DNA from: a virus
Lineage: Duplodnaviria > Caudoviricetes
DNA: 55,129 nucleotides
Virus record (IMG/VR): IMGVR_UViG_3300042882_000260
Location: 1 to 55,129 of that record
Reading direction: 5' to 3' (one strand)
The notes beneath the pieces were generated by a model, which saw only the letters and a program-made list of their open reading frames with translations, was not told where the DNA came from and ran no database searches. Shown here piece after piece: positions 11,086 to 48,542 of this stretch. Position numbers and translations under genes: made by a program. Position 1 is the first letter of the stretch. Each line of letters starts with the position of its first letter.

Positions 11086-12900
11086 ATGGCAAACAAAGAC
11101 AACTTAATTAAACTGGTCGCACAAAAATTGGGACCAGATCAACTTAACCAAATGGTGGATCAAGCTGCGCAAGCGCTTAGTCAAGACCCCGATGTCACGC
11201 CCGACGTTATTAATAAAATCATCGAGATGTTTGAGTTCGTTGCTGAGAACCCTGACGAGTATCAGTCTGTGGTTCAACAAGCCATTCAAACTGGCGCGTT
11301 AGATGAGGGTGACTTGCCTCCAGAGTTTGATCCGGTAGTAATTGCCGTTATTTTGTTAGCCTTCTATGGCCTACGTGATCGCGTTGGTGGCGAAATGCAA
11401 ATGGCCCAAGGTGGCCTTGCTAGCATGGCTCAGCGCGTACAATCTGCTGGTAGAAACGGCGACACAATGCTCGCGCATATCACACCACAAGAGGCCTCAC
11501 TGTTAGAGCGCCGTGGTGGCCTAGGTTCAATGAACCCAAACACCGGCTTGCCTGAGTACGGGTTCATGAAGAAATTAAAGAAAATAGTTAAAGCCGTAGC
11601 GCCAATTGCCGTTTCATTTATTCCAGGTATTGGTCCACTAGCTGCTGCAGCGTTGTCTGCAGGTACCACTGCGGCATTAGGTGGCAACCTTAAGGAAAGC
11701 TTGTTGTCTGGGCTTGGCGGCGCTTTAGGTACAGTAAAGGGCATGAATTTTGCTGGTAACCTTGGTCAAAGTTTAAATCAAGCCGTACCAGGCTTAAGCA
11801 CATTAGGCCTAAGCAACCAAGTACTTGGCTCTGGCATACTAGGTGGTGCGGCAAGTGCTATTGCAGGTAAGAACCCATTAACTGGCGCGCTGACTGCTGG
11901 TCTAACTAGCTACGCCGCGCCTAAGATTGCAGAATCATTAAATGCTAACATAGCAGGTTCGCAAGGTGTTACAGCTGACATGGTACGTGGCGCAAACATC
12001 GCTGCGCAAACTGGTGGCAATCCACTAGTTGGCGCTGGTGCTGCCGGTATTGGTAGTATCGCTGGCAACCTAATGAGCGATGGCTCTTTGTTGGGTCCAC
12101 AAGCGGCTGTAGATAGTATGGGTAATAAATTACCTCCATTGTTAGGTGAAACGCCTAACCCTACAGACTTGGTAACCTTAGACAATGGTATGACAACACA
12201 GTATCAAGATATGGTGCCAGGTTCTAATTATGAGCTTGCTCAAACACCAGTCATCTCTGGTACAGTTGGCGCACCTGCACCTACAACTGGTGCCTTGTCA
12301 CAAGTAGCTCAAGCCGCCGCGCCATCAACCGGCTTCGGCTTTGGTGATATTGCTAAGGTTGGTTTAATTGGCAGCTTGATCGCTGGTAAGACACCACAAC
12401 AAGCGCAACAAAATATTCAAGATTCTGCGTTAACTGCTCAACAAAAAGAGGGCATGCTACGCTCACTAACCAACTACACATTTAGTCCAAACATGACTAC
12501 CTTCCCAACCGAAGGTACGCCAGAGTATGATAAATTGATGTCTGATTTATCAAAAGGCATTGAGCAAACTTACTCTAACCCAACCTTTACAGAAGTCAAA
12601 GCTAAAGGTGGCCGCACTAAACGTCAACCACGAGGCGCATTAAGCCAAATGTCATACGCCGTAGAGGGCCCAGGCACTGGTCGCTCAGACAGCATAGACG
12701 CTAGATTATCTGACGGCGAGTATGTCATTGATGCCGAAACTGTGGCATTATTAGGTAATGGTTCAACACGAGCAGGTGCCGCGATGCTCGATCAAATGAG
12801 ACAAGGTATTAGACAACAAAAGGGTAAGGCTTTAGCTAAGGGCAAGTTTAGTCCTGACGCCAAATCGCCCTTGGCATACATGAAAGGCGGATTACGATAA
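11086..12900 (+). CDS. Internal virion (ejection) protein 1
   Basis: GRNGDTMLAHI...NPNTGLPEY and GPGTGRSDSIDARLSDGEYVI motifs; Gly/Ala hydrophobic core; GG motifs. Confidence 0.7.
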   Translation: MANKDNLIKLVAQKLGPDQLNQMVDQAAQALSQDPDVTPDVINKIIEMFEFVAENPDEYQSVVQQAIQTGALDEGDLPPEFDPVVIAVILLAFYGLRDRVGGEMQMAQGGLASMAQRVQSAGRNGDTMLAHITPQEASLLERRGGLGSMNPNTGLPEYGFMKKLKKIVKAVAPIAVSFIPGIGPLAAAALSAGTTAALGGNLKESLLSGLGGALGTVKGMNFAGNLGQSLNQAVPGLSTLGLSNQVLGSGILGGAASAIAGKNPLTGALTAGLTSYAAPKIAESLNANIAGSQGVTADMVRGANIAAQTGGNPLVGAGAAGIGSIAGNLMSDGSLLGPQAAVDSMGNKLPPLLGETPNPTDLVTLDNGMTTQYQDMVPGSNYELAQTPVISGTVGAPAPTTGALSQVAQAAAPSTGFGFGDIAKVGLIGSLIAGKTPQQAQQNIQDSALTAQQKEGMLRSLTNYTFSPNMTTFPTEGTPEYDKLMSDLSKGIEQTYSNPTFTEVKAKGGRTKRQPRGALSQMSYAVEGPGTGRSDSIDARLSDGEYVIDAETVALLGNGSTRAGAAMLDQMRQGIRQQKGKALAKGKFSPDAKSPLAYMKGGLR

Positions 12901-15900
12901 TGGCATCTTTATTTGCAGGCACCCCACAACAGGCACCTAGCTACGCGGCAACCACGTCGGATGTGCCAAAGTGGTTACAAGACTACACCGTTGACTTGTT
13001 CTCACAACAACGCGCTGTATCAGGTACACCTTTTCAACCGTACGAGTTGCCTAGGATTGCACAACAAACAGCGCCTACCACTGCCGCGTACGACTTAATA
13101 CAAAAGAATATTGGCGCTTATCAGCCAACCGTTCAGAACGCAATCACTGGTACACAAGGCTTAGCTGGGCAATCAGCAGTTAGCAACATTGGCACCTACA
13201 TGAATCCGTACACTCAAAACGTGACGGATCAAATCGCTAAGCTCGGCGCGCGTAACCTATCTGAAAACTTATTGCCGGCTGTTAGCGATCAGTTTATTAA
13301 GGCTGGCCAGTTTGGCTCATCAGGCATGGGTACGTTCGGCAACCGCGCATTGCGTGATACTCAAGAGTCTATATTGGCTAACCAAGCTTCGGCGTTGCAA
13401 TCAGGTTACACTCAAGCGTTGGGCGCAAGCCAAGCGGATCTAACACGTCAACAGGGTGCACTGGCACAGACTGCTGACTTAGCTAAGGCACAACAAGGCT
13501 TGTCTACCGCTGACGCTGCAGCACTACAATCAATCGGTGCTGAGCAACAAGCTCAACAACAAAAAGGCTTAGATGTAGCTTACCAAGATTTTCAAAATCA
13601 AATAAATTACCCGCAAACTCAAATTAATAATATGAGTACAACATTGCGTGGCTTACCTGCAAATGCAACACCCACTACAGGTACAACATCAAGCTATAAA
13701 ACGGAATTTGCACCAAGCACATTAGGCCAAATTGCCGGCGCATATAGTTTATTTCAAGGCGTTAATTCGGCACAGGCGCAAAAAGCACTTGGGGCAGCTA
13801 AAGGTGGCGTGGTTAATGGTTACGCTGAAGGTGGTGCAGTAGGCGCAGACGACTTGCACGGCGCTGTTATGGCTGACTATGGTAAGTACTTTAAACGTGG
13901 TGGCATGGTATCAGGCTATGCTTTTGGGGGAAGAACAATGGCAACAGCCACTGCTCAACCAGGAATGTCTAGTATAGGTAACAAAACTATTCCTGAGCTA
14001 GAGCAGTACATTGCTGATTTAAAAAACAATAGAGTTATGCCTGGTGCAATTCAAGGTCGTAGCTTTGGCATGAGTGGCATGTTTAACAAATTAATGCCTC
14101 AACTTATGATACAAGTTGCAGAAAACCAATTGGCAGATAAACAAGCCGCTAATGCACCAACGTCTACTGCTGATCATTACACACAGACAATAACTGCACC
14201 TAACGTGGCCTTAGCTGCGCCAGTTAATATGCCAGCCAACATTGACGAGCTTAACGCTAAGTACTATCAAGGTGGCGACCCATACGGTAAGTATTTAGGT
14301 CAAGGTTATTCACACGGTGGCATGGTGCCAGGCTACGCTGAAGAGGGTTACGTTGATGCAGAAGATCCTGCACCAATGGTTGATGGTGGCCAAGCGTTTG
14401 CTGATCAGTACGCACAAGGTCAGTTGGAGTACCCAACACAACAAGACGCACCGGTGCGAGTAGCGCCAACGATGTCTTACATGCAAGACCCTGAGGTAAT
14501 GCAGGCTAACGCTGAGCGTAAGGCGTTGCTAAAACAATTACAAACATCTTTGTCTAACGCCCCGGCTGGTCGAGACACTGGTCCTACTGAGTCTGAGATG
14601 TGGTTCAATCGTGCCGCAGCGTTCTTAGACCCAGGCAAGACTGGCTCCTTCGGTGAGGGCTTACAACACCTATCCGCTGTAGAGGCCGCGCATAAGGCTG
14701 AGCAACGCAAGGCTAAGATTGCCAACCAAGCAGCAGACTTACAACGCTTACAGGCACGTTCAGAGTTAGCTCAAAAACAATACGAGATGACAATGGACGA
14801 AGGTAAACGTCGCATGATTGAGCAATACCTAACACCAACACCTCGTTCAACTGATGGTGGTAAAGTTAGCGGTTACGATACAGGTATTCCAGACAATATG
14901 AAGGCCTTGTTGTTATCTTTAGATGCAGATGAAGCTGTAAAAACATTGGTCGAGATGGCTAAAGAAAATAACAAAGCTTCTGATTTAATTAAAGGGGTTA
15001 GGGAATTAGTTAAACTTGGCAAAGTTACCGAAGAAAAAGCTGCTCAAATTCTTGAAGACAACTTACAAGGTAAACTTGAGATGATTGACGTGGCTGTTCC
15101 TGAGTTGGGCGGTACGTTTAAACTTACTGGCCCTGAGGCTCGTAAGTACTATGATTCAGGTGTGTTGCCTAAACGTTTTGCGCCAACGGCTGCACCTGCT
15201 GAAGCAACTACACAAACTACTGCACCTGCTGGGGCACCTGCTCAAGCTGCGCCTAAACAATTACCACTATCACAAGAGCAAATGAAAGCTAAAGAGACTG
15301 GCTTAGTTGAACAGTCTAAAGCCGACATTGCAGCGAGTGGCGACTTGTTAGCTCAAAAATCATTTGCTAAGCAACAAAAAGATGCGGCCAACCTTGTGCT
15401 TGGTTACGCTACAAAAAGCCCTAAATCATTTGGTATCCTTGCCGATCCTACGTTCTCAAACGCACTGGCTAGCCTAGTTGATACTGGTGTTAACACACCG
15501 TGGGGTAGCGTTGGTTTGGCCGTTGAAGAGCCTATCGCTAAGCTTAAGCTAACTGGCCCAGAGGCCTCTGTTCGTCAATTAGCCGCTGCACCTATAGCGT
15601 TGATTGAGGTTGGTTACCGTAAGATGTTCTTAAAAGGCGAAGGCGCCGTGTCTAACATGGAGGGTGCGTTAACCAAGTACATTGGTCCACAGCTTTCTGA
15701 TAACGCTAAGACTGTTCAACTTAAAGCGGGTATGATTACCATTGGTGCTGAGAAGCAAGAAAAAATAATCGATGCCTTTGAAAAATACAAAGAGCAGCAT
15801 CCAGAGGCTGGTCCACGTTCTTTCTATCAAACGCCTGAGTATAAACGTATCAACGATAGCTATGAAACTAAATACCGTGCGTTTGCTGAGAAGAACGGCA

Positions 15901-15991: not shown

Positions 15992-18900
15992 ATGGCTGAT
16001 AACGTAGAGATCACGCTTAAACCTGTACCTGTCTCGCCTGATAATAAATCATCGATTGATTATGACTCGTTGTCAGAAGATCAAAAGCTTATAGCCAATA
16101 AGATTTTTGATGAGGCAGAAAGACAAGGCGTTGACCCTGATCTTATGTTATCGCTTGCGCACATTGAAAATCGTTTCAACACGGGGCCATCACCCAAGGG
16201 TGCGCTAGGCCCAATGCAATTAATGCCCGGTACGGCTGAAGAGTTAAAAGTCGATCCGAACAACATAGATCAAAACATCTATGGTGGCGTCACTTATTTC
16301 AAGCGCATGCTCGACAAGTACAAAGACCCATACGTTGCAGGTATTGCTTACAACGCTGGCCCTGGTGTTGCCGATAAGTTCTTAGAGACAGACGACATTA
16401 GCGTCATCCCAACTGAGACACTAAACTACGTTGATCAGCTAGACAGACTGTATAAACCAAAAGGCGCTGACGTTGATGTAGACAACGTGCCAGTTATTCA
16501 GCCATTGCCGGAAGAGAAGGCAGCCTTTGAGCGTGACGCTATGGCTGAGGCGGCTGGTGCTGGTGCCGGTGCAACAGCCGGGTTGGCTAGTGGCGCTTAC
16601 ACCGAGGCTAAGATTAAACAAGCAGAGGCTGGTGAAAAGGCCGCTCAACGTCAAGCCGCCTCAGCAGAAAAACGCATCGCCGCTGGTGAGACTCGTGTCG
16701 CTGCCAAAGAGGGTGAGCACACCGGCCGTCTTAAAATACAAACAACTGCCGCTGAGTCATCAATAAAAGAGGCAGCTCGTTTACGCGATGCACAACTGGC
16801 TGCAGAAAAACGCTTGGCTAAGGCCACAGACAACGCTCGCCGCTACGGTGTACTAGAAGAGGCTGTTAAGACTACACCAGGTGGCGTGACACAACAAGGT
16901 GGCCTAGGCTCTGGCGCGATGCGTCACGCTAACGTCATGGGTGAGGTTCACGAGGCTAACGTTGTGCGTAAAGGCACCGAGACTGCCGGTCCAGGTTACT
17001 CACAAAAGTCACGCCTAATTGTCCCTGACAAGTACGCCGGTGCGTCTGTCTATAACCCAGAACAAATTGCTGCTCAAAAAGAGTTGGCTGCCGCTGATGC
17101 AGAGCACCAACGTTTAATCAAGGCAGCAGACAAGGCAGAGAGTGTTGCTCAAAAAGAGGCAGATCGCTTACGCAACCTAACAGAAAAAGGCCCAGCAGGT
17201 AAGACTGCTGCACAAGTCAATTTAGATTTAGCTAAAGCGGATTATGCTAAGGCTGCGGCTAATAAAGCACCTGGTGTTGGCACAAACATTGTTCGATATA
17301 TAAGTAAAATACCTGGCATGTCTATGCTCCCTGGTGCCGGCGCTGGCTTGGATATTGTTGAGGCCCGTGAGCGCTTTAAACAAGGCGACTACCCTGGCGC
17401 AGCAATCAGTGGCGTTGGTGCTGTTGGCGGTGCGTTGTCTATGATCCCACCTATTGGTCCAGTTGGCGCAGGTCTTAAAGTCATCGGTGGCTTAACGTCA
17501 TTGGCCGCACCTGCTCTAAACTATTACCGTGATAGTAGAGAGCCAGAGGCTAAGTACGCAGCTGGTGGCTTAATAAAAGGCTACGCGCAAGGTGGTAAAA
17601 AAGACGACGGCTATTTGATTGCGCCGCCAAAAAGCATGGCGGATGAAGCATTGCGTTGGTCTGGTGACAAGGTTGACTATGCAAGAAAACTTCTTAACGA
17701 GGCGCCAATTCCAAATCCATTTAAGCTATTAAGTGGCGATATAAGCCCAATGGACAGCGTAGGCGACTTGTACTTTGGCGATACAGCTGGGTTATTAAAC
17801 CGTTGGTCTGAAGGTAAAGCGCCTGTCACTTTCCCTGCGTATGGTCCTAAGGTAGTTAACGCTAAGTTTGATCCAGCGATTGTTGACGCTATTGGCGCAG
17901 CGTTTCCAATAGTATCTGCTGCAAAGGCTGGGCTACCTTTAGTTAAAGCTGGCGGCAAAAAATTATTTAACGAACTAGCGTCACAATATGAAGCGGGTAC
18001 TGGTATTGGTAAATACATGGTTGAACCTAGAATGAATATTGTTGAAAAAGATAAAGGTAAAACAATAAGAACAAACGATAGAGGCGCAGAAGTTACTCGC
18101 GCTAGTAGAACAAACAAAAAAACAGGTCAGTATGTTGGCGCACCTCCAGGTATTGATTCGCCACAGGCACTTGGTGCTTTAGTAAATGATTATGTTAAAG
18201 GTATGGAGCAAGGCTTACCAGGTAGAAATTTTTATACCGATTCAAGTAAAGATATTTGGGATCGAACTGGTCACAATATGACAGAAGCTGATTTGTTAGC
18301 TCAAAACATTGCTATTTTAAGTAGAGCAAATAATGTTGGTGGCAATACATCAATGTCCGCTAAAGCGCATATTCAAGCAGCAACCGGCGATCCTATTAAA
18401 ACAGGTCGATTCCCAAGTAAAGATTCGCCACCATTACAAGCAATGTATGACGCAGGGCAAGCAGAATACCTTGGGCATAAACGCGATCCGTTTGCAACAC
18501 AATTAGGTGTTACTTACGCCCCAGAACGAATTGGCCGCGGTGTTAATGATATGCATGAGGCCGAACTAATGGGATATCCGACGAATAAAGTCGCTGGGGC
18601 AACACAACATTCATTTATGGATGAAATACGAGCTCGTGCTATTGATAAAGCAAATCAAACAAACCTTGGTGGGTTTAATGATTGGGGTACTGGCAATGCA
18701 CAAGCAGCGGCATGGTCTGGAAATAAAATAAGACGAGGTGACATTTCTGCCGGAGATGCTGCAAAATCGTATGCTGATTATTTGCCGTTGCACGAAGCAA
18801 ATGCAACATACGAATCAGTAAGCTCGCCAGTGACAGGGCATTTGCAAGGATTACTTGATGCCCCTTTTGAAGAACGTTTAAAATATACATTTGATCCTAG

Positions 18901-23667: not shown

Positions 23668-23696
23668 TTTTAATTCTCCTTTTACTTTTAACCTTA

Positions 23697-23760
23697 TATT
23701 GTGTTGCCCAACCACAAAAACGATTATACAGAGTGTTGAGGGAAACGCAACACTTATTTT
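23697..23760 (-). promoter_or_regulatory. Early sigma70 promoter/operator element, copy 1
   Basis: TTGCGT-16bp-TATAAT on minus strand; palindrome AGTGTTG-N9-CAACACT 23732-23754. Confidence 0.8.
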
Positions 23761-34072: not shown

Positions 34073-34093
34073 TTTATTTAGTCCTTTTAGTTT

Positions 34094-34157: not shown

Positions 34158-34160
34158 CAA

Positions 34161-34645: not shown

Positions 34646-34666
34646 TTTGTTTAGTCCTTTTAGTTT

Positions 34667-34730
34667 TATTGTGTTGCCCAACCACAGAAACGATTATACG
34701 GAGTGTTGAGAAAAACGCAACACTTATTTT
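34667..34730 (-). promoter_or_regulatory. Early promoter/operator element, copy 3
   Basis: TTGCGT-16bp-TATAAT; palindrome 34702-34724. Confidence 0.8.
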
Positions 34731-34808
34731 CAATTATTTTTAATTATTTTTAACGATGACACTATCATTGGGTTTCAAGGCTAATTTTATTTAAAATGCT
34801 TTTGTATG

Positions 34809-35121: not shown

Positions 35122-35651
35122 GTGAAGTAAGTGAGCCACGTGAGAGAGCATCAACGGCGCTAATGCCGAGCGGTCTAACGGCCCAGGAAGAGATCTTCTG
35201 TCAGAACATAGTGAGGGGCAACAACCAGTCAGACGCTTTCAGAGCGGCCTACGACACTAGTAGCTACAAAGAAGCGTCTATACATCGCTCTGCAAAAGCC
35301 ATCATGGACAAAATCAAGATTAAATCAAGGATCGCGGAGTTGCGCGCTCCTGTGATCAAGAAGGTGCAGATCACGCTCGAAGATCACCTGATTAAGTTGG
35401 GCCAGCTGAGTGACCTCGCTGCAGCCAAGGATCAGTACTCTGCTGCGATTAATGGCGAGATGCTGCGAGGTAAGGTCAGTGGCCTCTACGTTGATAAGAT
35501 CGAGAGCAAGAACATTAACCTGAACGGCTCGCTAGCTAGTGAGATCAAGCTGAGCCGCTTAACTGACGACGAGCTAGCCGAGTACCTCAGACTAACCGCG
35601 AAGGCCTCAGACGAGAGCCTAGACGGTCTTAAGGTGGTGACCGACGTATGA
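35118..35651 (+). CDS. terS: Terminase small subunit
   Basis: LTAQEEIFC...NQSDAFRAAY...; directly upstream of terL. Confidence 0.85.
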   Translation: MSEVSEPRERASTALMPSGLTAQEEIFCQNIVRGNNQSDAFRAAYDTSSYKEASIHRSAKAIMDKIKIKSRIAELRAPVIKKVQITLEDHLIKLGQLSDLAAAKDQYSAAINGEMLRGKVSGLYVDKIESKNINLNGSLASEIKLSRLTDDELAEYLRLTAKASDESLDGLKVVTDV

Positions 35652-37189
35652 TTGACATGTCCAACGTGATACCGCTGCGAGCTATCCAGCTTGAGCACGA
35701 CAGGCGCCGCGCTGAGCGCTCACTTAGCGAGTTCACTAAGATGGCCTGGCACGTCATCGAGCCTGGCACGCCTTACATCGGCAACTGGCACCTCGATACC
35801 ATCTCTGAGCACCTGGAGGCCGTCACGAAGGGCGAGATACGCAACCTGCTCATCAACGTGCCACCTCGGCACATGAAGTCGATACAGGTCGCTGTGATGT
35901 GGCCGGTGTGGGTGTGGATGACGCAGCCGCAGTTCCGATGGCTGTTCGCCTCGTACGCTATCAGCCTGTCTGTGCGTGACTCACTCAAGTGCCGCCGACT
36001 GATCGAGTCGCCCTGGTTCCAAGAGCGCTGGGGCCACCGGTTCGCGTTGACCGGCGACCAGAACGCTAAGACCTTCTTCGAGAACGACAAGTCCGGCTAC
36101 CGGTTCGCGACCTCGGTCGGCGCGTCGACCACTGGCCACGGCGGTGACGTGCTGGTTGTCGATGACCCGCACAACTCGATGGAGGCGCAGTCAGACACGA
36201 TGCGCGAGTCCACGCTTGAGTGGTGGGACCAGGCGATGAGTACGCGGCTCAACAACCCTAAGACCGGCTGCAAGGTGATCGTGATGCAGCGGCTGCACGA
36301 GAACGACCTCTCTGGTCACGTGCTCAGGCAGGGCGGCTGGGATCACCTCTGCCTGCCGGCTCAGTTCGAGAAGGGCAGACGCAGCAAGACCACGCTGGGC
36401 AACTACGACCCACGCACCGAGGACGGCGAGCTGCTGTGGAAGGGCCGCTTCGGCATGAAAGAGATCGACGAGCTCAAGGTGCAGCTAGGTGAGTACGGCA
36501 CATCGGGCCAGCTGCAGCAACGCCCGTCACCGGCCGCTGGTGGTATCATCAAGCGCGACTGGTTCAAGCTGCTGCCGGCAGACGAGCCGTTGCCTAAGCT
36601 CATGTACGTTGTGCAGTCCTACGACACGGCCTTCACCGAGAAGACACAGAACGACCCAACGGCCTGCAGCACCTGGGGCGTGTTCAATCACGCCAAGGGT
36701 AAGTCGGTCGTGCTGCTTGACTGCTGGAAGGAGCACCTCGGTTACCCTGACCTGCGTAAGAAGATGGGCGACGAGTACCGGTCTAAGTACGGCGACAAGG
36801 ACAAGACGGTCGACGTGGTGCTGATCGAGGAGAAGGGGTCAGGCATTAGCTTGATGCAAGACCTGCGACGCAGCGGCGTGCCCTGTCACCCGTACAACCC
36901 AGGGCGAGCGGACAAGGTCACACGTGTCCACGCGGTCGCGCCCTTGCTTGAGTCTGGCCTCGTGTACTTGCCTGAGTCGAAGAAGAACCCAGGCCGCGCA
37001 CCAGCGTGGACAGACGCGATGATGCACGAGCTGATGATTTTCCCTAACGGCGAGCACGACGACATGGTCGACAGCATGACGCAGGCGCTAATCTACTTGC
37101 GTGACACGCGCATGCTGAGCATCGACGGCAACCAGGTTGAGTACGGACAAGCGCCACCAAAAGAAAGAAGCAATCCGTACGCTGCGTAG
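35648..37189 (+). CDS. terL: Terminase large subunit
   Basis: NVPPRHMKS, VVDDPH, QLQQRP, SYDTA, IEEKGSG, HDDMVDSMTQA. Confidence 0.95.
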   Translation: MIDMSNVIPLRAIQLEHDRRRAERSLSEFTKMAWHVIEPGTPYIGNWHLDTISEHLEAVTKGEIRNLLINVPPRHMKSIQVAVMWPVWVWMTQPQFRWLFASYAISLSVRDSLKCRRLIESPWFQERWGHRFALTGDQNAKTFFENDKSGYRFATSVGASTTGHGGDVLVVDDPHNSMEAQSDTMRESTLEWWDQAMSTRLNNPKTGCKVIVMQRLHENDLSGHVLRQGGWDHLCLPAQFEKGRRSKTTLGNYDPRTEDGELLWKGRFGMKEIDELKVQLGEYGTSGQLQQRPSPAAGGIIKRDWFKLLPADEPLPKLMYVVQSYDTAFTEKTQNDPTACSTWGVFNHAKGKSVVLLDCWKEHLGYPDLRKKMGDEYRSKYGDKDKTVDVVLIEEKGSGISLMQDLRRSGVPCHPYNPGRADKVTRVHAVAPLLESGLVYLPESKKNPGRAPAWTDAMMHELMIFPNGEHDDMVDSMTQALIYLRDTRMLSIDGNQVEYGQAPPKERSNPYAA

Positions 37190-37249: not shown

Positions 37250-40200
37250 ATGCCAAGCCCACTCAGTCTGATTAAGAAAATGTACTCCCCACTTGAGAGG
37301 GCGGTCGTTGCGCATAAGCTAGAGACAATGCCTAGCTCACAGTGGGCTGCGTACATCAAGGCCAACGCGCCCAAGGCCGCGAAGAAGGAAGCACTAGCGA
37401 TTAAGCTAGACGAGCTACTAGCTCGGCAGCCTAAGTTGTCCAAGGCGGACATCGTCAAACACATCCAAGAGAACTCACCCAAGGTCAGCACCAAGAACAT
37501 CCGCGCTGAGGGTTATGGTAGCGACGAGACCCAGTATGGCAAGTACGTGCTGCCAGGCGGCGAGGACTACACCGAGACGCTTATTCACCTGCCGCCAAAC
37601 ACAAGCTCACCCTCAATCAGAATGCAGAAAGTCTTTGAGATTGCCGACGAAAATGGGCAATTGCTAGCTAGTGGCACGGTACCTATGTCGCCACGCACGC
37701 TTGAGAAGCTCAACAACAACCCTAACTGGGTGGTGCGTGAGTACGAGCAGCCTCACCCCGCCGACATACTCCGTGACCCATCTAACTTTACCTCTGGTCA
37801 CTTCGACGAGCCCAACGTCTTGGCTCACCTGCGCACCAACATTAAGCTTACACCTGACAACAAGGACGTGCTCTTCCTAGAGGAGCTGCAGTCAGACTGG
37901 GCGCAGCAGGGTAGGAAGAAAGGGTTCTTAACTCCGGACTTGCATGTAGAGCGCCGTGCGCAAATAAAGGCGGAGATGGATGCCTTGGCTAAAGAAGCCA
38001 CTGCGATGCGTGAGCGTGGAGAGAGCCCCGTTGATATCCGTCAACGTATGCGCCAACTAGACGATGCGTTGCGCGATATCCCTACACCGAAGGGCGTACC
38101 ATCTGGCCCTTACATTGAGGACACAGCCGACTGGACCGCGTTAGGTTTGAAGAAGGCCATCGAGCGAGCGGTTGACGAGGGGCAAAGCCATTTGGCCTGG
38201 ACTACTGGCACGCAGCAGGCTGATCGTTACAACCTGGCTAAGCAGATTGATAGCATAAATCATAGTATGAACCCTGACGGGACCTACAGCTTTTCAGCAA
38301 TAAAGAATGGTGAAGAGGTTCTTTCAAAAGAAGGCCTAACGCAGGACGAGCTTGCTGATCACTTAGGCAAAGACATAGCAGAGAAGATTGTTAAGAGCGA
38401 GGGCGCAGATTCGCCGGCAGGCACTAGCGTAGGTTGGGAGGCAGCGCCATCAATATACGGCGACGTTGCTGCTCCACCACAACCAAGGACTCTGTCTGGC
38501 TTGGATCTACAAGTCGGCGGCGAAGGCATGAGAACCTACTACGATCAGATTGTACCCAGTACAGCCAACGACATTTTAAAATCAATGGGTGTAACGGAGC
38601 GCGTTAAACCTATCGGCGTGCAACTTGGCAACAACGTGTCTGAGCAGATGGGCTTCGACATCACGCCAGAGATACGTGACTACGTGATGAATCAAGGCTT
38701 ACCTGCGTTCGCCGGCGGTGGCGTGGTTAAAGCAACAGCCAAAGAGATGGCGGATCTTTTAAAACTTTATCATGGTGGCCGCAAGTTTGAACAGTGGAAC
38801 CCTAAGATGATTGGTATGGGCGAAGGCGCTGGACGACGTAACCCGTTAATGGCACAAGGTCCCGGCCTTTATGCAGGTGACACAACAGATCTAGCAAAAA
38901 TATATTTAAAGTATGGCGGAGACGACCCTGCGTTAACAGAGCTAAGTGTAGATCCTACCAATATTATTAATTACTATAAAAAAATGCCACCAGAGCATTT
39001 GGAAAAAGTTAAAGAGGCTGAAAGTCGCCTAGATGCTTTAGGTCTTAGAACAAGTAACTACGGCTTACAAAATGCCTGGTTAGGTGGTAGAGAGGCAGAC
39101 CCACAGCGAGTGCGCGACATATTAGTTAACTCTGGCGTAGACGGGTTACAACAATACTTAAACCCTTACTTTGGTACTGAGTTTTCTATATTTAATCCCG
39201 ATATCATTAAACGAGTACGTACAATGGATTCATCTGAGTACGCAGAAGGCGGCCCAGTACACATGGACGAGGGTGGCTTGAACGTTAGAGCGTCAGGTGA
39301 CTACGGCAACTTTGACAGCGAGAGCTCGTCAGGCAGCCACTACAACTTTAGCACCGACGTTGACATCCTAAACAAGTACGGCTTCGGTGTTACCAAAGAG
39401 GGCCAGGTGTTCAAGTTACCTGAGCGCACCTACACCTACGAGGATGGCTACACAGAGACCGTACCAGCACGTAAGATTAAGCGTGACGACATCAGCGAGC
39501 TACGCGCTCGTTACATGACAGACGACGGTGTACAGTATGGCGTTGGTCGCCAGCCACTAGCGAAGGGCTGGTCTGCTTACCGCACCGACCCACGCACTCA
39601 GGCAACGGTAGGGTTTAACGTGTCGCCTCAATACAAGAACTTATCTGTTTACCGTTCCGACCCACGCGATCAGTCAAGCGTTGGCGTTAACGTGTCGCCG
39701 TACTACAAGGGCATCAACTACACCAAGAACTTTGCAGAGGGCGGCGCGGTAGAGACTGATGACGTTGACTACGATGAGCTGTACGAGTTTAGAGACTACG
39801 GCGACCGTGAGACAGGCGAGGCTAAGGACACTGGTGCCTTGGGCGAGATCCGTATGCCTAACGGCCGTGACGTGATGACCGAGTACTCCATCAACGTCGA
39901 CGGCCGCGAGATGCCGAGCATCGTTGAGGGTATGCACCCGGCTGACGTGAACTACATCCGTGAGACCGGTATCGTGCCTGAAGACGCAGTGGCCACGGCC
40001 GTTCGCAGCGCTAACAAGCGTGAGGCGAGTGGGCAGTCACCGTTTTGGAATAAAAAAGATGAGCCCGCATTTGCAGAAGGTGGCGAGGTAGACTATGATG
40101 CGATGTACGAGTTTAAAGATAACGCACCAGGCTTCGCTAAGGGCGGCCCTGTTTTATCAGTAGGCAGAGGCGAGAAGTTGCCGGTGTCACAAGGCGCAGG

Positions 40201-40405
40201 GCTAACAGCCAAGGGCCGCGCAAAGTATAACGCAGCGACGGGCTCTAACTTAAAGGCGCCAGCGCCGCACCCTAAAACAGAGAAAGATGCAGGTAGGCGT
40301 AAGTCATTCTGCGCGCGCATGTCAGGTATGCCAGGACCAATGAAAGACGAGAACGGCAACCCAACACGTAAAGCGGCGTCACTAAAACGTTGGAATTGTA
40401 ACTAA
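37250..40405 (+). CDS. Large polyvalent multidomain protein segmented by GG motifs
   Basis: EELQSDW domain; ART-PolyVal-like YHG...GEG...GPGLY; beta-rich segment; C-terminal DUF6321-like RRKSFCARM...RWNC. Confidence 0.75.
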   Translation: MPSPLSLIKKMYSPLERAVVAHKLETMPSSQWAAYIKANAPKAAKKEALAIKLDELLARQPKLSKADIVKHIQENSPKVSTKNIRAEGYGSDETQYGKYVLPGGEDYTETLIHLPPNTSSPSIRMQKVFEIADENGQLLASGTVPMSPRTLEKLNNNPNWVVREYEQPHPADILRDPSNFTSGHFDEPNVLAHLRTNIKLTPDNKDVLFLEELQSDWAQQGRKKGFLTPDLHVERRAQIKAEMDALAKEATAMRERGESPVDIRQRMRQLDDALRDIPTPKGVPSGPYIEDTADWTALGLKKAIERAVDEGQSHLAWTTGTQQADRYNLAKQIDSINHSMNPDGTYSFSAIKNGEEVLSKEGLTQDELADHLGKDIAEKIVKSEGADSPAGTSVGWEAAPSIYGDVAAPPQPRTLSGLDLQVGGEGMRTYYDQIVPSTANDILKSMGVTERVKPIGVQLGNNVSEQMGFDITPEIRDYVMNQGLPAFAGGGVVKATAKEMADLLKLYHGGRKFEQWNPKMIGMGEGAGRRNPLMAQGPGLYAGDTTDLAKIYLKYGGDDPALTELSVDPTNIINYYKKMPPEHLEKVKEAESRLDALGLRTSNYGLQNAWLGGREADPQRVRDILVNSGVDGLQQYLNPYFGTEFSIFNPDIIKRVRTMDSSEYAEGGPVHMDEGGLNVRASGDYGNFDSESSSGSHYNFSTDVDILNKYGFGVTKEGQVFKLPERTYTYEDGYTETVPARKIKRDDISELRARYMTDDGVQYGVGRQPLAKGWSAYRTDPRTQATVGFNVSPQYKNLSVYRSDPRDQSSVGVNVSPYYKGINYTKNFAEGGAVETDDVDYDELYEFRDYGDRETGEAKDTGALGEIRMPNGRDVMTEYSINVDGREMPSIVEGMHPADVNYIRETGIVPEDAVATAVRSANKREASGQSPFWNKKDEPAFAEGGEVDYDAMYEFKDNAPGFAKGGPVLSVGRGEKLPVSQGAGLTAKGRAKYNAATGSNLKAPAPHPKTEKDAGRRKSFCARMSGMPGPMKDENGNPTRKAASLKRWNCN

Positions 40406-40413: not shown

Positions 40414-42924
40414 ATGGCTAAAGACATGATGGACGATGAGGAAGAACTCAAGGGCGAGACAGTTGAGCTAGACGAAGAGGTTACGGACATCCGTGACACT
40501 GAAGACGGCGGCGTGATGGTTACGCTTGAGAACGAAGAGGACCATCAAAATCAGAGCGAGCACTTTGCCAACATCGTTGACGACATCGATCCTAAGGTCC
40601 TTAACACAATCGTTGACGACTTGATAGACAAGATTGGCCGAGACAAGGACGCACGTAAGAAAAGGGATGAGCAATATGAAGAGGGCATTCGTCGTACTGG
40701 CCTTGGTGATGACGCTCCAGGTGGTGCGCAATTTACTGGAGCCAACAAGGTTGTTCACCCACTAATGACAGAGGCCTGCGTTGACTTCTCAGCGCGCGCC
40801 ATGAAGGAGCTGTTCCCACCGAACGGCCCAGTGCGTAGCAAGATCATAGGCACACAGAACAAGGCCAAGCTTGAGAAGGCTGAGCGCAAGGCCAAGTACA
40901 TGAACTGGCAGCTCACCGAGCAGATGCCTGAGTTCCGCTCTGAGCTTGAGCAGCTAACGACACAGTTGCCACTAGGCGGCGTGCAGTACATGAAGCTGTT
41001 CTGGAACAAGGACCTTAATCGCACGGAGTCAGTGTTCATTCCAGTGGATGACATCTACCTACCGTTCGCTGCGTCTAACTTCCACACGGCCGAGCGCAAG
41101 ACGCACGTCCAGTACATCACCAAGTTTGAGTACGAGAAACGCGTACGCTCAGGCATGTACCGCGAGGTTGACCTCGGCATGGCTGACGACATCGACTTCT
41201 CTAAGGCCACCAAGGCCAACGATAAGATCGAAGGTCGCGAGGACAACTCTTACAACGAGGATGGCCTACGCACGGTGTTTGAGATCACTACGGCAGCCGA
41301 CCTTGAGGGTGACGAGTTCTTACCGTACGTCATCACAGTAGACAAGGCCACAGAGAAGTGTTTGGCCGTGTACCGTAACTGGGCAGAGAGCGACGCAACA
41401 ATCAAGGAGCCACTGGTCTCTATCGTTGAGTTCCCGTTCGTACCTTGGCGTGGCGCGTACCCAATTGGTCTAACACACATGATTGGCGGCCTATCAGGCG
41501 CTGCGACCGGTGCATTGCGTGCGTTGCTTGACTCTGCGCACATATCTAACATCCCAACGTTGCTTAAGCTTAAGGGTGGCCCTAACGGCCAGAACGTTAA
41601 TCCACAGCCGACTGAGGTTATCGAGCTAGAGGGCGGCATAAACGTCGACGACGTGCGTAAAATCGCCATGCCAATGCCGTTTAACCCACCGAGCCCAGTA
41701 CTTATGCAGTTGCTTGGCTTCTTGGTTGACGCAGGCAAGGGCGTGGTGCAAACTTCGTTCGAAAAACTGTCAGATCAGAACCCAAACATGCCGGTTGGCA
41801 CGACTTTAGCGTTAATTGAGCAGGGAATGGTGGTGTTTTCATCCATCCACTCACGCTTACACAACTCAATGGCGCAGGTTCTTAAGGTAATGCACCGCCT
41901 AAACTCTGCTTATTTGACAGACGAGATGGTAATTGACGAAATCGGCGAAAAAATGGTCGATCCGTCAGACTTTGACGGTCCGATGGACGTTATTCCTGTC
42001 TCAGACCCCAATATTTTCAGTGAAACACAGCGTTTTGCGCAAATTCAAGCGGTTCAACAGCGTGCAATGGCGTTGCCACAGCTGTATGACGTGCGTAAGG
42101 TTGAGGAATTGTTCTTAAAACAGCTTAAAATCCCAGAGGGTTCTGAGCTATTAATACCAAAACCTGAGCCTAAAGACATCGATCCGATACAAGAGAACTT
42201 CGCGGCCTCAGTTGGCAAGCCAATTGGCGCGTTGCCTGAGCAAGAGCACATCGCTCACTTGCGCGTGCACTTGGCGTTCTTACAGTCACCCATGTTTGGT
42301 CAAAATCCAATCATCGCACCGATGTTCGTACCTGCAATAGTGGCGCACATTAAGGACCACTTGTTAATGCACTACATGAAGGTTACCAACCAAGGCCTCA
42401 GAGTAGCTAGTGAGAGCGGCCAGTTGGGCGACGACGACGCGATGATTGAGGCACAAGCAGCGGTTGAGATACAACAAGCGATTGAAAGCGCGATACCGCC
42501 AGAGTTCTTGCAAATTGTTTCAGAGGCGTTCGCTATGGCACAACAAATGCAGCCACAGCAACCACAAGACCCAACGCAAGCTGCGGCAGCCGTACAGCGC
42601 GAGTCAATAGCGCAACGTGCCCAGTCTGATCAGATGAAGATACAGGCGCAAGGTCAGCGTGATCAAATCCAAGCGCAGACACAAGCACAGCGTGACGCGG
42701 TCAAAGCTAGCTTGCAACTTCGCCAGGACGAGCTTGACTTGCAAACCGAGCTGCTTAAACAAGACCGTGAGGACGCACGCAAGCAGGCTGATTTAACAGC
42801 ACGCTTGCAAATGAACCAAGAAGACAACGCTACGGCCAAGGACCTCGCGGCCGCTGAGATACTAAGCGGTAACAAAGTAGACGTGTCAACTGGCACGGGC
42901 ATTAACCCAAATCCTAATTTTTAA
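40414..42924 (+). CDS. Portal protein
   Basis: VVHPLMTEACVDF, ELFPPNGPVRS, PVGTTLALIEQG, PVSDPNIFS; Gln-rich C-terminal barrel. Confidence 0.9.
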   Translation: MAKDMMDDEEELKGETVELDEEVTDIRDTEDGGVMVTLENEEDHQNQSEHFANIVDDIDPKVLNTIVDDLIDKIGRDKDARKKRDEQYEEGIRRTGLGDDAPGGAQFTGANKVVHPLMTEACVDFSARAMKELFPPNGPVRSKIIGTQNKAKLEKAERKAKYMNWQLTEQMPEFRSELEQLTTQLPLGGVQYMKLFWNKDLNRTESVFIPVDDIYLPFAASNFHTAERKTHVQYITKFEYEKRVRSGMYREVDLGMADDIDFSKATKANDKIEGREDNSYNEDGLRTVFEITTAADLEGDEFLPYVITVDKATEKCLAVYRNWAESDATIKEPLVSIVEFPFVPWRGAYPIGLTHMIGGLSGAATGALRALLDSAHISNIPTLLKLKGGPNGQNVNPQPTEVIELEGGINVDDVRKIAMPMPFNPPSPVLMQLLGFLVDAGKGVVQTSFEKLSDQNPNMPVGTTLALIEQGMVVFSSIHSRLHNSMAQVLKVMHRLNSAYLTDEMVIDEIGEKMVDPSDFDGPMDVIPVSDPNIFSETQRFAQIQAVQQRAMALPQLYDVRKVEELFLKQLKIPEGSELLIPKPEPKDIDPIQENFAASVGKPIGALPEQEHIAHLRVHLAFLQSPMFGQNPIIAPMFVPAIVAHIKDHLLMHYMKVTNQGLRVASESGQLGDDDAMIEAQAAVEIQQAIESAIPPEFLQIVSEAFAMAQQMQPQQPQDPTQAAAAVQRESIAQRAQSDQMKIQAQGQRDQIQAQTQAQRDAVKASLQLRQDELDLQTELLKQDREDARKQADLTARLQMNQEDNATAKDLAAAEILSGNKVDVSTGTGINPNPNF

Positions 42925-43262: not shown

Positions 43263-43444
43263 CGATCGATAAGATTTTAAATTTATTAACGAGCGCGCAG
43301 CAAGAGTTGGCAGTGGCTGCGCTTCGTTCACCGAATTCACATGATGCGTTTGAGTACGGGCGCATGGTGGGGATGTACGCTGGAATTGAGCGTGCTATAG
43401 AGGTAATTTTGTCAACAATTAAAGAGGATAACGATGATGTCTGA
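43259..43444 (+). CDS. Hypothetical protein
   Basis: EYGRMVGMYAGIERA; coupled to groES. Confidence 0.7.
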   Translation: MTIDKILNLLTSAQQELAVAALRSPNSHDAFEYGRMVGMYAGIERAIEVILSTIKEDNDDV

Positions 43445-43835
43445 TCAAACGCTGGATGATGCGTTTCCAAGTGCAGACCCAGGAATAACACCTTTTGGGA
43501 GTTATGTTTTGGTACAAATTAGGGCGCCAAAGCTGAAAACAGCAGGCGGTATTATTTTAAACGCTGAAACTACAGAGACCGAGAAGTGGAACACACAGGT
43601 AGGTAAGGTAGTAACAGTGGGGCCATTGGCCTTCAAGAACCGTAACAGCATGGAGTTATGGCCTGAGGGTGCTTGGTGTGAGAAGGGTGACTTTGTTCGA
43701 GTCGCCAAGTACGGTGGTGATCGTTGGGAAGTGCGCATTGATAAAGACACGACCGCAATGTTCGTAATTTTTAAAGACACGGATCTAATCGGTAAGGTAA
43801 CAGTTGACCCATTAGCGATTCGTGCTTTCTTATAG
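43434..43835 (+). CDS. groES: GroES-like co-chaperonin
   Basis: PFGSYVLV...KTAGGIIL...GKVVTVGP...GDFV...KYGG. Confidence 0.88.
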   Translation: MMSDQTLDDAFPSADPGITPFGSYVLVQIRAPKLKTAGGIILNAETTETEKWNTQVGKVVTVGPLAFKNRNSMELWPEGAWCEKGDFVRVAKYGGDRWEVRIDKDTTAMFVIFKDTDLIGKVTVDPLAIRAFL

Positions 43836-43853: not shown

Positions 43854-44780
43854 ATGGCAAAAGAAAAAGAAGTAGAATCAATCATCGAAGACGATGAGGA
43901 CGAGCTAAAGGATGCGGAGTATGTAGCCGTTGATAATCCGCTTGACGAAGACGATGAAGAAGAGGAAAGTACCTTAAAATCATCCGAAGAAGAGGGCGAC
44001 GCTAGTAGTGAAGACGACCGCGAAGCAATTCGTGAACGCCGTCGACTAGAGAAAAAAGAACGTAAAGAACGCCGCGATAAGGCCATCGGCCGCGATAAAG
44101 TTGAGCTTAACTTTTTGCGTAGTCGTAACGATGAGCTAGAGCGTCGTATCGGTGCTGTTGAAACACACACCCAACAAACAAACTTGAGTCAACTTGATCA
44201 GCAAATCCAGCAGGCTGCTTATGAGGTAGAGACATCACAAAAAATCATTGCCAAGGCAGTAGAAGCTGGCAACGGTGACGATGTCGTGCAGGCGATGCAG
44301 TACCGTGATCAAGCGATGGCTAAGATGCAACAGCTTTCGCAGTACAAGCAACAGCAATCTCAGCAAGCGCCACGTCAGCCACAGGTTGATTCAGAGGTTG
44401 TGCATTATGCTAAGGAGTTCATGGAAGAGCACAGCTGGTATGACCCTCAAGGTAAGGACGAGGACTCAGCCATTGTGTTGGCCATTGACAACAAGCTAGC
44501 GCAAGAAGGCTTTGATCCACGCTCTGAGGAGTACTGGGATGAGTTGCATGATCGCGTTAAGCGTCGTCTGCCAGAGAAGTTTAAGGCAGCACGCAAACCG
44601 ACAGGTGGCCCTGCTGTAGGTTCTGGTCGTGAACACGCGCCAGTGTCGACACGCAAAGAGGTTTACATTAGCCCTGAACGCAAGGCAGCCTTACAAGAGG
44701 CAGGCGTTTGGGATGATCCAGTGTTACGTCAGCGCTACGTTAAAAAGTACGCTGAATACGATCGTGCTAACAAGAGTTAA
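43854..44780 (+). CDS. Capsid scaffolding protein (putative)
   Basis: Acidic N-terminus, coiled coil, basic C-terminus; upstream of capsid genes. Confidence 0.7.
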   Translation: MAKEKEVESIIEDDEDELKDAEYVAVDNPLDEDDEEEESTLKSSEEEGDASSEDDREAIRERRRLEKKERKERRDKAIGRDKVELNFLRSRNDELERRIGAVETHTQQTNLSQLDQQIQQAAYEVETSQKIIAKAVEAGNGDDVVQAMQYRDQAMAKMQQLSQYKQQQSQQAPRQPQVDSEVVHYAKEFMEEHSWYDPQGKDEDSAIVLAIDNKLAQEGFDPRSEEYWDELHDRVKRRLPEKFKAARKPTGGPAVGSGREHAPVSTRKEVYISPERKAALQEAGVWDDPVLRQRYVKKYAEYDRANKS

Positions 44781-44781
44781 A

Positions 44782-44819
44782 AAATAGTAGTTTTCTTTTT
44801 TTAAAAATTAGAACATAAT
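44782..44819 (+). promoter_or_regulatory. Putative late promoter, copy 2
   Basis: AAATAGTAGTTTT...TAGAACATAAT. Confidence 0.65.
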
Positions 44820-44847
44820 TCTAATCAATTGCTGAATGGAGCAAGTA

Positions 44848-47074: not shown

Positions 47075-47416
47075 ATGTCATCAACCACCTTCACAGGTCC
47101 AGTCACCAGTTTAAATGGTTTCGTGGGCGCAATCACTGGCAATATCACTGGTAACGTAACTGGTAATCTTACAGGTAACGTAATTGGTAACGTAACTGGT
47201 AACGTAACAGGCAATCTTACAGGTAAAGTATCATCTACAACTGCAACATCAACAACATTGGGCGCAATTGCCAATGCTGTTAATACAACAGGCAAAGTTT
47301 TAGGCACAACACTTTACAACACAACAACTAAGACATTCTATGTGGCGCAAGGTCCATCAACAGCCGCTGTATGGATTGATGCTTCTGACGGTACAACTAC
47401 TATCTCACCAGCATAA
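47075..47416 (+). CDS. Head fibre/decoration protein with (GN[VIL]T)n repeat
   Basis: TTFTGPV start; about 8 tetrapeptide repeats. Confidence 0.7.
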   Translation: MSSTTFTGPVTSLNGFVGAITGNITGNVTGNLTGNVIGNVTGNVTGNLTGKVSSTTATSTTLGAIANAVNTTGKVLGTTLYNTTTKTFYVAQGPSTAAVWIDASDGTTTISPA

Positions 47417-47893: not shown

Positions 47894-47903
47894 GAGCAAT
47901 ATC

Positions 47904-48542
47904 ATGGCAGTTAAATATGTAAAAGATTTTAGTTTTGACAAATCATTTGGCTATACAGGCTCAACAGCTACTGGTCCGGTAAGCAATAAAGAACGCGCAA
48001 TGACTGCCTCTGCTAAAGCGGGAGCTAAGATGGGCGCTGGTGCAGTAAGTAACGCAGAAGTTGACACACGTAAAGCAGCCCAAGCAATTGCTAATGCAAA
48101 TAGACTGCCTAAACCACTAGCAGATTCAGTAATAAATAAAACGCCTCGTATTGTTGATGACTCAGAGCCAACAGCAGAAGAAATTAAATTGATGCGCCAA
48201 GCACGTGATTATATGCGTGAGGACAAGGCAACGTCTGACGCAGCTAAAAAAGAAATGGGTTTTAAAAAAGGTGGCTGCGCTACAGCGATTCACAAGCACG
48301 AAAAAGCACAGCACCCAGGTGAACCCCTCACCAAGCTTAAAAAAGGCGGCAGCGTGCTTGAAAAGGCCACTGGTGAGCGTTATGCGTCTAAATCAGCGAT
48401 GATGAAGCATGAAAAGATGGAAACTCCACGCATGCAGCGTGAAGAGATGATCCAGAAACGCGTTGTTAAGGGCCCAGCTATGGCTGCCGGTCGTGACCCA
48501 CGCGTTCCGATGCTTAAATGTGGCGGTAGCTACAAAAAATAG
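47904..48542 (+). CDS. Basic Lys/Met-rich protein with three GG motifs
   Basis: FKKGG, LKKGG, LKCGG; SD AGGAG. Confidence 0.7.
   Translation: MAVKYVKDFSFDKSFGYTGSTATGPVSNKERAMTASAKAGAKMGAGAVSNAEVDTRKAAQAIANANRLPKPLADSVINKTPRIVDDSEPTAEEIKLMRQARDYMREDKATSDAAKKEMGFKKGGCATAIHKHEKAQHPGEPLTKLKKGGSVLEKATGERYASKSAMMKHEKMETPRMQREEMIQKRVVKGPAMAAGRDPRVPMLKCGGSYKK

Follow-up and report, generated by a model that had tools for sequence, protein, structure and literature searches.

A double-glycine motif in five late proteins

The window analysed here is the entire 55,129-base record of an IMG/VR phage (IMGVR_UViG_3300042882_000260), which has a 185-base repeat at both ends, and our subject is a short double-glycine motif that recurs in five of its late proteins, together with the relation of its copies to the borders of protein modules. 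Genes and proteins are named by their first nucleotide (nt): the motif is found in the products of three consecutive large genes (11086, 12900 and 15992), in a large protein encoded between the large terminase and the portal (37250) and in a small basic protein (47904). The original prediction, which drew attention to the motif, had listed its copies by position, and each nucleotide coordinate does start the peptide named for it, from 11401 to 40133 and likewise for the copies in 11086 and 47904 (Table 1). The consensus reads (P/G)-[F/Y/M/L]-[A/K]-x-G-G-x-V, and copies often stand in tandem with a period of 8–9 residues. The pairs 8–9 amino acids (aa) apart that had been noticed at the outset are seen in the window, and such spacings account for 11 of 69 and 13 of 212 in two sets of homologues.

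Table 1. Motif copies, the proteins that contain them and other genes of the window
Feature	Position (nt)	Strand	Remarks
First putative ejection protein, 604 aa	11086..12900	+	two hydrophobic segments, C-terminal tape-measure-type module
Motif copy MAQGGLA	11401..11421	+	homologous position FARGGLS/YKRGGLA in relatives
C-terminal module of 11086	12586..12897	+	KAKGG (nt 12598), GPGTGRSDS..LSDGEYV, terminal YMKGGLR (nt 12877)
Second putative ejection protein, 1029 aa	12900..15989	+	N-domain, motif cluster, variable insert, motif cluster, C-domain
Motif cluster 1: AAKGGVV, YAEGGAV, FKRGGMV, YAFGGRT	13794..13937	+	nt 13794, 13821, 13890, 13917
Motif cluster 2: YSHGGMV (14307) and degenerate YAEEGYV	14307..14354	+
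Third putative ejection protein, 1249 aa	15992..19741	+	N-terminal lytic transglycosylase PF01464 SLT, E 1e-12, aa 38-129
Motif pair YAAGGLI (17555), YAQGGKK (17582)	17555..17602	+
Putative polyvalent protein, 1051 aa	37250..40405	+	between TerL and portal; N-domain M1 (aa 1-486) and four C-terminal modules
Motif copy FAGGGVV, end of M1	38708..38728	+
Motif pair YAEGGPV (39239), MDEGGLN (39263)	39239..39283	+
Motif copy FAEGGAV	39731..39751	+
Motif copies FAEGGEV (then DYDAMYEF; 40070), FAKGGPV (40133)	40070..40153	+
DUF6321 module	40193..40393	+	PF19846, E 4.5e-24
Small basic protein, 212 aa	47904..48542	+	FKKGGCA (nt 48261), LKKGGSV (48336), LKCGGSY (48513)
SU10-type adaptor proteins	7290, and weakly 48573	+
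Small terminase	35118	+
Large terminase TerL	35648-37189	+
Portal	40414-42924	+
GroES/Cpn10 homologue, head module	43434-43835	+	loop KTAGGIIL
Scaffold-like protein	43854	+	acidic, coiled-coil
Major capsid protein	46036	+

Occurrence and conservation of the motif

We counted a strict pattern, [FYML][AKS]xGGx[VI], and its five-residue core over the 65 open reading frames (ORFs) of the window, and took the expectation from 2000 composition-preserving shuffles. Strict copies number 10 against 0.67 ± 0.79 expected, with three in 12900, one in 15992, five in 37250, one in 47904 and none in any other ORF, and not one of the 2000 shuffles reached the observed count in the five proteins. The core is found 19 times, 16 of them in the five proteins (1.73 expected there); the remaining three, in the very Gly-rich tail proteins 185, 49909 and 53682, are explained by chance. 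Plain GG dipeptides stand at chance level, for example nine in 12900 where 8.6 are expected, so that the signal lies in the flanking residues (aromatic, Met or Leu; Ala or Lys; Val) and not in glycine content, as the original prediction required. Codons vary between copies, and the codon pair GGTGG makes up 0.47 of the GG pairs in the motif compared with 0.60 of other GG pairs, which places the selection, or conservation, at the level of the protein. The element is therefore a short linear motif conserved at the protein level. Among 281 distinct instances, Pro, Gly or Ala tend to stand before the aromatic residue, and GG is followed by a variable, mostly charged residue, then by Val (64%, at a position that the search pattern left free) and then by a polar residue.

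Since the pattern had been picked after inspection of the data, it was retested on homologues that had played no part in the original prediction, and the enrichment expected there for related phages was found in every family examined. Among relatives of the N-terminal domain of 37250 (M1; 120 of the 360 family members), 219 strict copies were found where about three are expected, with at least one copy in 77 of the 120. Long relatives of 12900 have 103 copies against 1.4 expected, and 49 of 51 carry at least one, while short forms that consist of the N-terminal domain only have the motif in just five of 69. For the 47904 family the 120 listed members (of 166) hold 194 strict copies, where less than one is expected, with the strict pattern in 107 of them, and 383 core copies against 9.8, with the core in all 120. 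The first reading had seen no comparable clusters in replication, terminase, portal or capsid proteins; there are none in the window, and no copy is present in a control set of 82 ORFs from relatives (portal, TerL, capsid, scaffold-like, 44836, 45417, 48573 and tail homologues).

Elsewhere among the relatives, a portal homologue (contig L148, 16451-18997) has LAKGGIV at its C-end, nine residues from the terminus, and small ORFs between portal and GroES in two other contigs (L156, 11317-11631; L119, 2728-4032) have three to four copies each.

Copies lie preferentially at module joints

Module borders were mapped as clusters of distinct BLAST segment ends at ≥60% identity, and a cluster was scored as near the motif when it lay within 10 aa of a copy. 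Of 41 such breakpoint clusters 16 are near the motif, where 4.57 are expected (P 0.0002), distributed as 11 of 20 in 37250, four of 15 in 12900 and one of six in 15992. In 37250 the similarity borders at aa ~493/507, 663, 828/834 and 935/941 adjoin copies at 487, 664, 828 and 941; segments of nine homologues start at aa 663, 23 segment ends fall at aa 828/834 and 16 at aa 935/941. In close relatives, whose portals are 80–99% identical to that of the window, the gene upstream of the portal is a mosaic with respect to 37250. In 12900 the N-domain segment ends at aa 333/341 in 37 homologues, adjoining the copies at 331/340. Similarity resumes at aa 461/467, near the copy at 470, and 12 homologues have segment ends at 461–467. 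The stretch between clusters 1 and 2 of this protein is deleted in relatives P0004 and P0005, with two copies merged into one joint, and relative P0011 has a different insert of ~240 aa between the copies. In three relatives of 15992 (L033, L036 and L038) similarity stops at aa 526–528, inside the first copy YAAGGLI.

The shifts in base composition that were noted at the outset are found as lower G+C in the variable inserts: 0.424 at aa 494–663 of 37250 compared with 0.535/0.541 in its flanks, 0.422 at aa 347–455 of 12900, and 0.406 compared with 0.503 at aa 669–1249 of 15992. Recent imports would be expected to have such values.

The strongest argument for tying the motif to the joint, rather than to the modules, comes from modules that also exist on their own. 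Protein gp064 of Caulobacter phage GB2A is the N-domain of 12900 alone, aligning to aa 1–280, and has no motif. In phages DSL-LC05 and S-CRES3 DUF6321 is a protein by itself, which begins at the point at which FAKGGPV of the window ends, and it too lacks the motif. The C-terminal module of 15992 (aa 669–1249) is a stand-alone ORF of ~700 aa in 31 other contigs, without strict copies. The proposal that any domain bracketed by copies is packaged fits poorly with these stand-alone versions. As judged from the alignments, the motif sits preferentially where independently mobile modules fuse.

Proteins that carry the motif

Protein 37250 can be assigned by its architecture and gene setting to the known class of polyvalent proteins. 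It consists of unrelated, varying modules, with five segments distributed independently over the ORFs of 18 relatives, and the 120 M1-family proteins compared are between 581 and 1829 aa long and differ in their C-terminal or N-terminal parts; its gene lies among head, portal and terminase genes, and the order TerL-37250-portal is found in 10 loci of relatives. In the accessible part of the source paper, polyvalent proteins are predicted to be packaged in the head and delivered with the DNA, their domains possibly being freed by proteolysis (PMC5512222).

The M1 family (aa ~90–500) comprises 360 proteins at E≤1e-5 with very different added parts. Some members carry PF18760, PF18857, PF18814, PF02195 or PF19846, among them domains listed for polyvalent proteins, of which we take PF18760 to be ART-PolyVal, PF18857 to be LPD38 and PF02195 to be ParB. 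DUF6321 is the only Pfam match of 37250 itself: the M1 domain matches no Pfam family, a Pfam search of eight modules one by one at E≤1 yielded no credible match, and an Atlas search with M1 returned only nameless viral clusters (0.84–0.86). Within M1 (37250-38707) residues such as H193, R195, R199, E212, Q214-W217, R326, G423-G426 and Y431 are invariant or nearly so, which suggests an enzyme or a specific binding domain. The M1 consensus ends in DITPEMR..GLPxFAxGG. Proteins that have M1 as their last domain finish with MKKGGKV and an amphipathic tail of ~16 residues; other family members end in FA[EH]GGEV-DYDAMYEFR, and many relatives in FA[EH]GGEVDYDAMYEFR. In 38 of the 101 motif-bearing M1-family proteins the last copy lies 11–25 residues before the C-end.

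Proteins 11086, 12900 and 15992 are reasonably taken to be virion-internal ejection proteins like T7 gp14, gp15 and gp16, because the SLT domain in 15992, the DNA ejection PHROG in 12900 and the hydrophobic segments in 11086 reproduce the T7 layout. As in T7-type phages, their three genes are large, late and adjacent, and the third encodes a lytic transglycosylase; GB2A has the same order. The hydrophobic windows of 11086 are at aa 77–102 and 167–192, and its motif positions are conserved in relatives. Its C-terminal ~80 aa match four tape-measure PHROGs, and the C-terminal module as a whole (~100 aa) matches 8160 representative clusters at E≤1e-3. In the best 150 of these it stands at the extreme C-end; among 142 of the best matches, a motif-like XAxGG lies within 60 aa upstream in 119, and the module ends with the motif (..AYMKGG..) in 69, others ending in ..AYLKGAA. 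In 12900, aa 9–288 match phrog_4287 ('DNA ejection protein'), and 35 aligned sequences of the family show no variation at G307, A309, G311 and G312. Searches against the PDB by sequence gave no match for 12900 or 37250 and only SLT for 15992.

The family of 47904 comprises 166 proteins with three to four copies each. Cys and HKHE motifs are conserved among them, and some end in DUF6496; canonical YAEGG, YAKGG and FAKGG are found in its members. A tblastn search with 47904 found no match in cultured phages. The earlier suggestion that the carriers are virion-internal is supported, by homology or gene place, for the three T7-like ejection proteins and the polyvalent protein. Taken together with 47904, this would mean that in this lineage the motif is confined to proteins stored in the virion and leaving through the tail.

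The same motif in tape measure proteins

The C-terminal module of 11086 leads outside this lineage. By tblastn it matched 33 phage records, 24 of them annotated as tape measure, and it matches the tape measure in PDB 8zdo at E 3.7e-9. In the tape measures of many siphophages the GPGTGxSD..SNGEYV module is flanked by canonical copies of the motif; Dinoroseobacter phage R5C has three FADGG by the module, two of them nine residues apart. No gene for a tail tube or tail chaperone was found in the window and its adaptors are of SU10 type, as in podophages; 11086 therefore shares a tape-measure module but is no tape measure. The presence of the motif in proteins of the tail lumen makes a capsid-interior docking peptide, one of the two functions offered originally, a poor fit.

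Lambda gpH has FATGG at 733, YATGG at 778 and, near its end, MRDGG (MRDGGLF) at 842. It loses a C-terminal piece of ~14 kDa from a Gly-rich region, with both site and catalyst called unknown in the 2025 Ur-lambda paper (PMC12617516), according to which residues ~690–817 are unresolved and the ordered segment 818–849 binds gpI. Cutting after F733 would yield pieces of 79.8 and 12.5 kDa. The tape measure pb2 of T5 was reported, from intact-mass mass spectrometry, to be cut after R1127 (PMC10038345, in the portion available). Residues 1127–1133 of pb2 are RAEGGMM, the C-terminal fragment after R1127 would have 92 residues, and five diverged tape measures of T5-like phages preserve P-R-A-x-G-G. 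In a six-frame scan of lambda, T7 and HK97, aromatic copies were found only in lambda gpH and in the gpI-like protein and gpJ of HK97; weak copies are present in gpZ of lambda and gp16 of T7, with a further copy in a T7 ORF that overlaps genes 2.8/3 (nt 10200-10703).

Genome context

The late genes on the + strand include, besides those of Table 1, genes for tail proteins, a holin-like protein and a lysozyme. The genome looks complete (CheckV 97%), and the direct repeat (185 bases, 1-185 and 54945-55129, 99% identical) is either a terminal repeat or an overlap from circular assembly. Megablast of 20 kb found no DNA-level match to cultured phages; by gene order the Caulobacter phages GB2A, RW, RLK and KcrB are the closest cultured relatives. 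Of the set described here these four have the 11086-type module only, and a cultured phage with the whole set is not known. At least 10 other viral contigs show the order TerL-polyvalent-portal-GroES-capsid as well, their portals being 33–56% identical to that of the window.

Several repeats were observed. The record ends are flanked by genes for paralogous, very Gly-rich proteins with near-identical C-ends (185-1255 and 53682-54752; 28% Gly, PF21722 Gly_rich_2). At 1265-3436, two adjacent paralogous genes of 141–147-nt tandem repeats contain 12 copies of a unit of ~47 aa, 60–80% identical, and probably encode a fibre or decoration protein with repeat domains. Directly after the capsid gene, a protein of 113 aa contains (G-N-[VIL]-T)n, encoded by a 12-nt periodic repeat (47125-47230). 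An intergenic element of ~50 nt, in copies 65–75% identical (7198-7248, 44779-44829 and 48534-48584), precedes three late gene blocks and could act as a promoter of late genes or as a terminator-promoter unit. A 125-nt repeat is found three times (23672-23796, 34069-34193 and 34642-34766; 62–84% identical) around the region of the early/late switch. The eight-base Chi sequence of E. coli occurs nine times on the + strand and not at all on the – strand, which may simply reflect Ala-Gly-Gly codons in + strand genes. A Chi-like DNA signal as the basis of the motif was considered and dropped, as GGTGG is not enriched in the motif codons.

A proposed cut or articulated joint

The explanation that we rank first, with a probability of roughly 0.4, is that the motif is a joint at which the chain is cut, or at least articulated, for separating and threading fused modules. 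The motif would be the joint of fusion proteins, and the chain would be cut there, as in the polyprotein reading of the original prediction, or at least hinged there, which would let modules pass through the tail channel and act one by one. Provided that the T5 assignment is right, the cut would fall between the first residue (aromatic or Arg) and Ala, and not after GG. The cutting agent would be a host protease or the protein itself by self-processing, and not a prohead protease; tape measures mature in the tail pathway, and thus a prohead protease cannot be the common reader. This explanation comes first because the motif is present in fusions and absent from stand-alone versions, because it is specific and short like the sites of proteases, and because T5 and lambda offer precedents.

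Several observations weigh against it. The sole support for cleavage is the T5 site R1127|AEGG, which was disputed in a 2025 reply, as the accessible text of that reply shows: older work had placed the cut after V1148 ± 1, and trypsin itself has a site at R1127 (PMC11937520). The agreement with lambda is one of mass estimates only, compatible and not discriminating; by BLASTP the gpH region does not match the module of the window significantly (E 0.14), so that the link to lambda, as far as sequence comparison goes, is one of motif and arrangement and not of alignment. The motif, called genome-wide at first, is not shared by all phages, since T7 gp14-16 and the HK97 tape measure lack it in the six-frame scan. 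No peptidase family was detected by Pfam on 49 of the 65 ORFs (the other 16 being small ORFs outside the scan), by PHROGs on 19 or by NCBIfam on nine, the last of which returned nothing at all; the early remark that no recognisable prohead protease is encoded therefore stands within these scans, and nothing points to the readers then suggested (44848, 43259 and 49610), which have no family hits, relatives' homologues of 44836 being without the motif. If cut, the copies 11–25 residues from the C-end, the AYMKGG tail of the 11086 family and the tandems 8–9 residues apart would release tiny peptides, and the 47904 family, with three to four copies in ~170 aa, would yield short peptides only.

The association with joints has its own exceptions. 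At ≥35% identity the enrichment is weaker (12 of 36 in 37250, P 0.007; five of 34 in 12900, P 0.17; one of eight in 15992, P 0.22). Breakpoints are not exclusive to the motif: many of those in 12900 fall at aa 89 and 200, and the C-module of 15992 starts at aa 669–701, more than 130 aa from a strict copy and with only a degenerate VKAGG nearby. The early remark that copies often coincide with domain borders, and the check proposed with it, whether homologues gain or lose modules exactly there, thus lead to an enrichment over chance and not to a rule, the exchanges falling neither exactly nor always at the motif.

Many of the copies that would make poor cleavage sites fit an uncleaved structural or docking element, which we hold to be possible, if somewhat doubtful. 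The motif would fold into a tight beta-hairpin that turns at GG, its Phe/Tyr, Ala and Val making a small hydrophobic face, and such a hairpin would either hinge or zip chains, or bind a shared partner such as the channel wall, the tail tip or hub, or an assembly chaperone. The alternation of hydrophobic and polar residues around GG suits a two-residue hairpin, and the tandem period of 8–9 residues speaks for the same reading. The extreme C-end often has a copy, after which comes a short conserved tail, acidic/aromatic or amphipathic (FAHGGEVDYDAMYEFR, MKKGGKV..LDAMRHEL), the 11086 family conserves its C-terminal ..AYMKGG, and 47904 and its relatives are small proteins made largely of copies. 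In lambda, according to the available text, the segment 818–849 of gpH that is ordered and bound to gpI includes MRDGGLF at 842 (PMC12617516). However, the motif is absent from modules that stand alone and hence is not required to package or fold each of them; in the solved tails examined the motif regions are unresolved (Douge, 1658–1699 only; lambda, ~690–817), as far as the accessible descriptions go.

The motif could also be a tolerated flexible linker, uncut and without a reader, where recombinants happen to stay in frame and functional. The enrichment of breakpoints at copies, the deletion that joins two copies and the differing G+C of the inserts all agree with this, but we consider it unlikely: Phe/Tyr, Ala, GG and Val are kept from actinophage tape measures to lambda and to aquatic podophages, 35 aligned sequences agree throughout at four positions, the DNA itself gives no signal, and copies are found at protein ends as well.

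Very improbable, in our opinion, is a chaperonin tag that would mimic the mobile loop of GroES (..AGGIVL..) and recruit host GroEL to aggregation-prone ejected proteins. The phage does encode a Cpn10/GroES homologue with the loop KTAGGIIL, and in 79 M1-family loci the motif is present in the M1 ORF in 11 of 12 with GroES within 10 kb and in 11 of 67 without (Fisher P 8e-7). This association is confounded by descent, as the GroES loci share one TerL-polyvalent-portal-GroES-capsid module (portals 33–56% identical), and only four supported independent pairs are available (sign test P 0.25). Moreover, the mobile loop requires Gly and, after it, three small hydrophobic residues (PMC5649160), a make-up that GG-x-V-polar does not share, and lambda and T5 are not known to encode GroES. 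Finally, an artefact of chance or low complexity in Gly-rich proteins, for which one could cite the three of 19 core matches in very Gly-rich tail proteins and the definition of the pattern after inspection, is refuted by the shuffles (0 of 2000), the 30- to 200-fold excess in homologue sets and the absence of copies from control proteins. The remaining probability we leave to explanations outside those considered here.

Returning to the cut joint, a bolder form of it is that the motif is a widespread 'punctuation mark' of tail-travelling proteins (tape measures, ejection proteins of podophages and polyvalent proteins packaged in the head), read by one conserved mechanism that cuts between the aromatic residue or Arg and Ala; the reader would be self-processing or a ubiquitous host factor. 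We regard this generalisation as rather unlikely. Were it true, it would name the cleavage site of lambda gpH, after F733 and/or Y778, settle the dispute over T5 pb2 in favour of R1127, and mean that these phages bring effector domains into the host in sets, as polyproteins with modules exchangeable at the marks. Polyvalent, ejection and tape-measure proteins are among the least understood components of the virion. A shared mark offers a cheap direct test in lambda and T5, could allow giant phage proteins that lack annotation, of which there are thousands, to be divided into modules and would provide natural splice points for swapping cargo domains in laboratory phages. If the motif is only a structured hinge, it is a useful feature for annotation and not a mechanism.

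As a shared joint mark the motif seems to be undescribed, the protein classes themselves being known. Literature searches on tape measures, conserved Gly-rich motifs and double-glycine virion proteins did not return a description, short motifs being poorly searchable, and the main text of PMC5512222, in the form available, contains neither 'linker' nor 'glycine', so that the joint motif is apparently not described there.

Comparison with known systems

Short recurrent motifs that are limited to virion-stored proteins and lie at the borders of the pieces are known from several viruses. T4 has a capsid-targeting sequence with Leu/Ile-x-Glu sites, phiKZ-type phages have Ser/Ala/Gly-x-Glu sites, the adenovirus protease recognises (M/I/L)xGG-X and that of African swine fever virus (ASFV) GG-X. 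The motif described here resembles them in these respects; in contrast to it, those systems have a dedicated virion protease, whereas none was found in this phage, and the motif occurs also in tail-lumen proteins, which never meet a prohead protease. T4 gp5, presumably cut at S351|A352, was considered as an example of cleavage and rejected: the residues are indeed Ser and Ala, but there is no GG motif there. The parallels originally drawn to adenovirus, ASFV and C39 are analogies only, as the scans of Pfam, PHROGs and NCBIfam detected no CE-clan, C39 or other peptidase and hence no cognate cysteine peptidase of the double-glycine class (adenain C5, ASFV C63, C39). These proteases cut directly after GG; in T5 pb2, the only mapped relative, the reported cut lies three residues before GG.

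T7 gp14, gp15 and gp16 resemble 11086, 12900 and 15992 in their order after the tail genes, in their sizes, in the SLT domain of the third and in the hydrophobic first protein. They differ in having no motif save a weak FSTGG in gp16, while the proteins of the window are mosaic, with inserts. Polyvalent proteins as described by Iyer, Burroughs, Anand, de Souza and Aravind (2017; PMC5512222) are, like 37250, large, composed of many modules and encoded beside portal and terminase; the available part of that paper invokes embedded metallopeptidase domains for their processing, whereas in the phage of 37250 no peptidase domain was detected in the ORFs scanned.

Closest in arrangement are the tape measures of lambda (gpH, giving gpH* and gpHC) and T5 (pb2, giving pb2* and pb2C), which are likewise long proteins that exit through the tail and have the same motif near the C-terminus. 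The window, by contrast, belongs to a podophage without a tape measure, and here the motif occurs up to six times per protein, in proteins that are probably packaged in the head.

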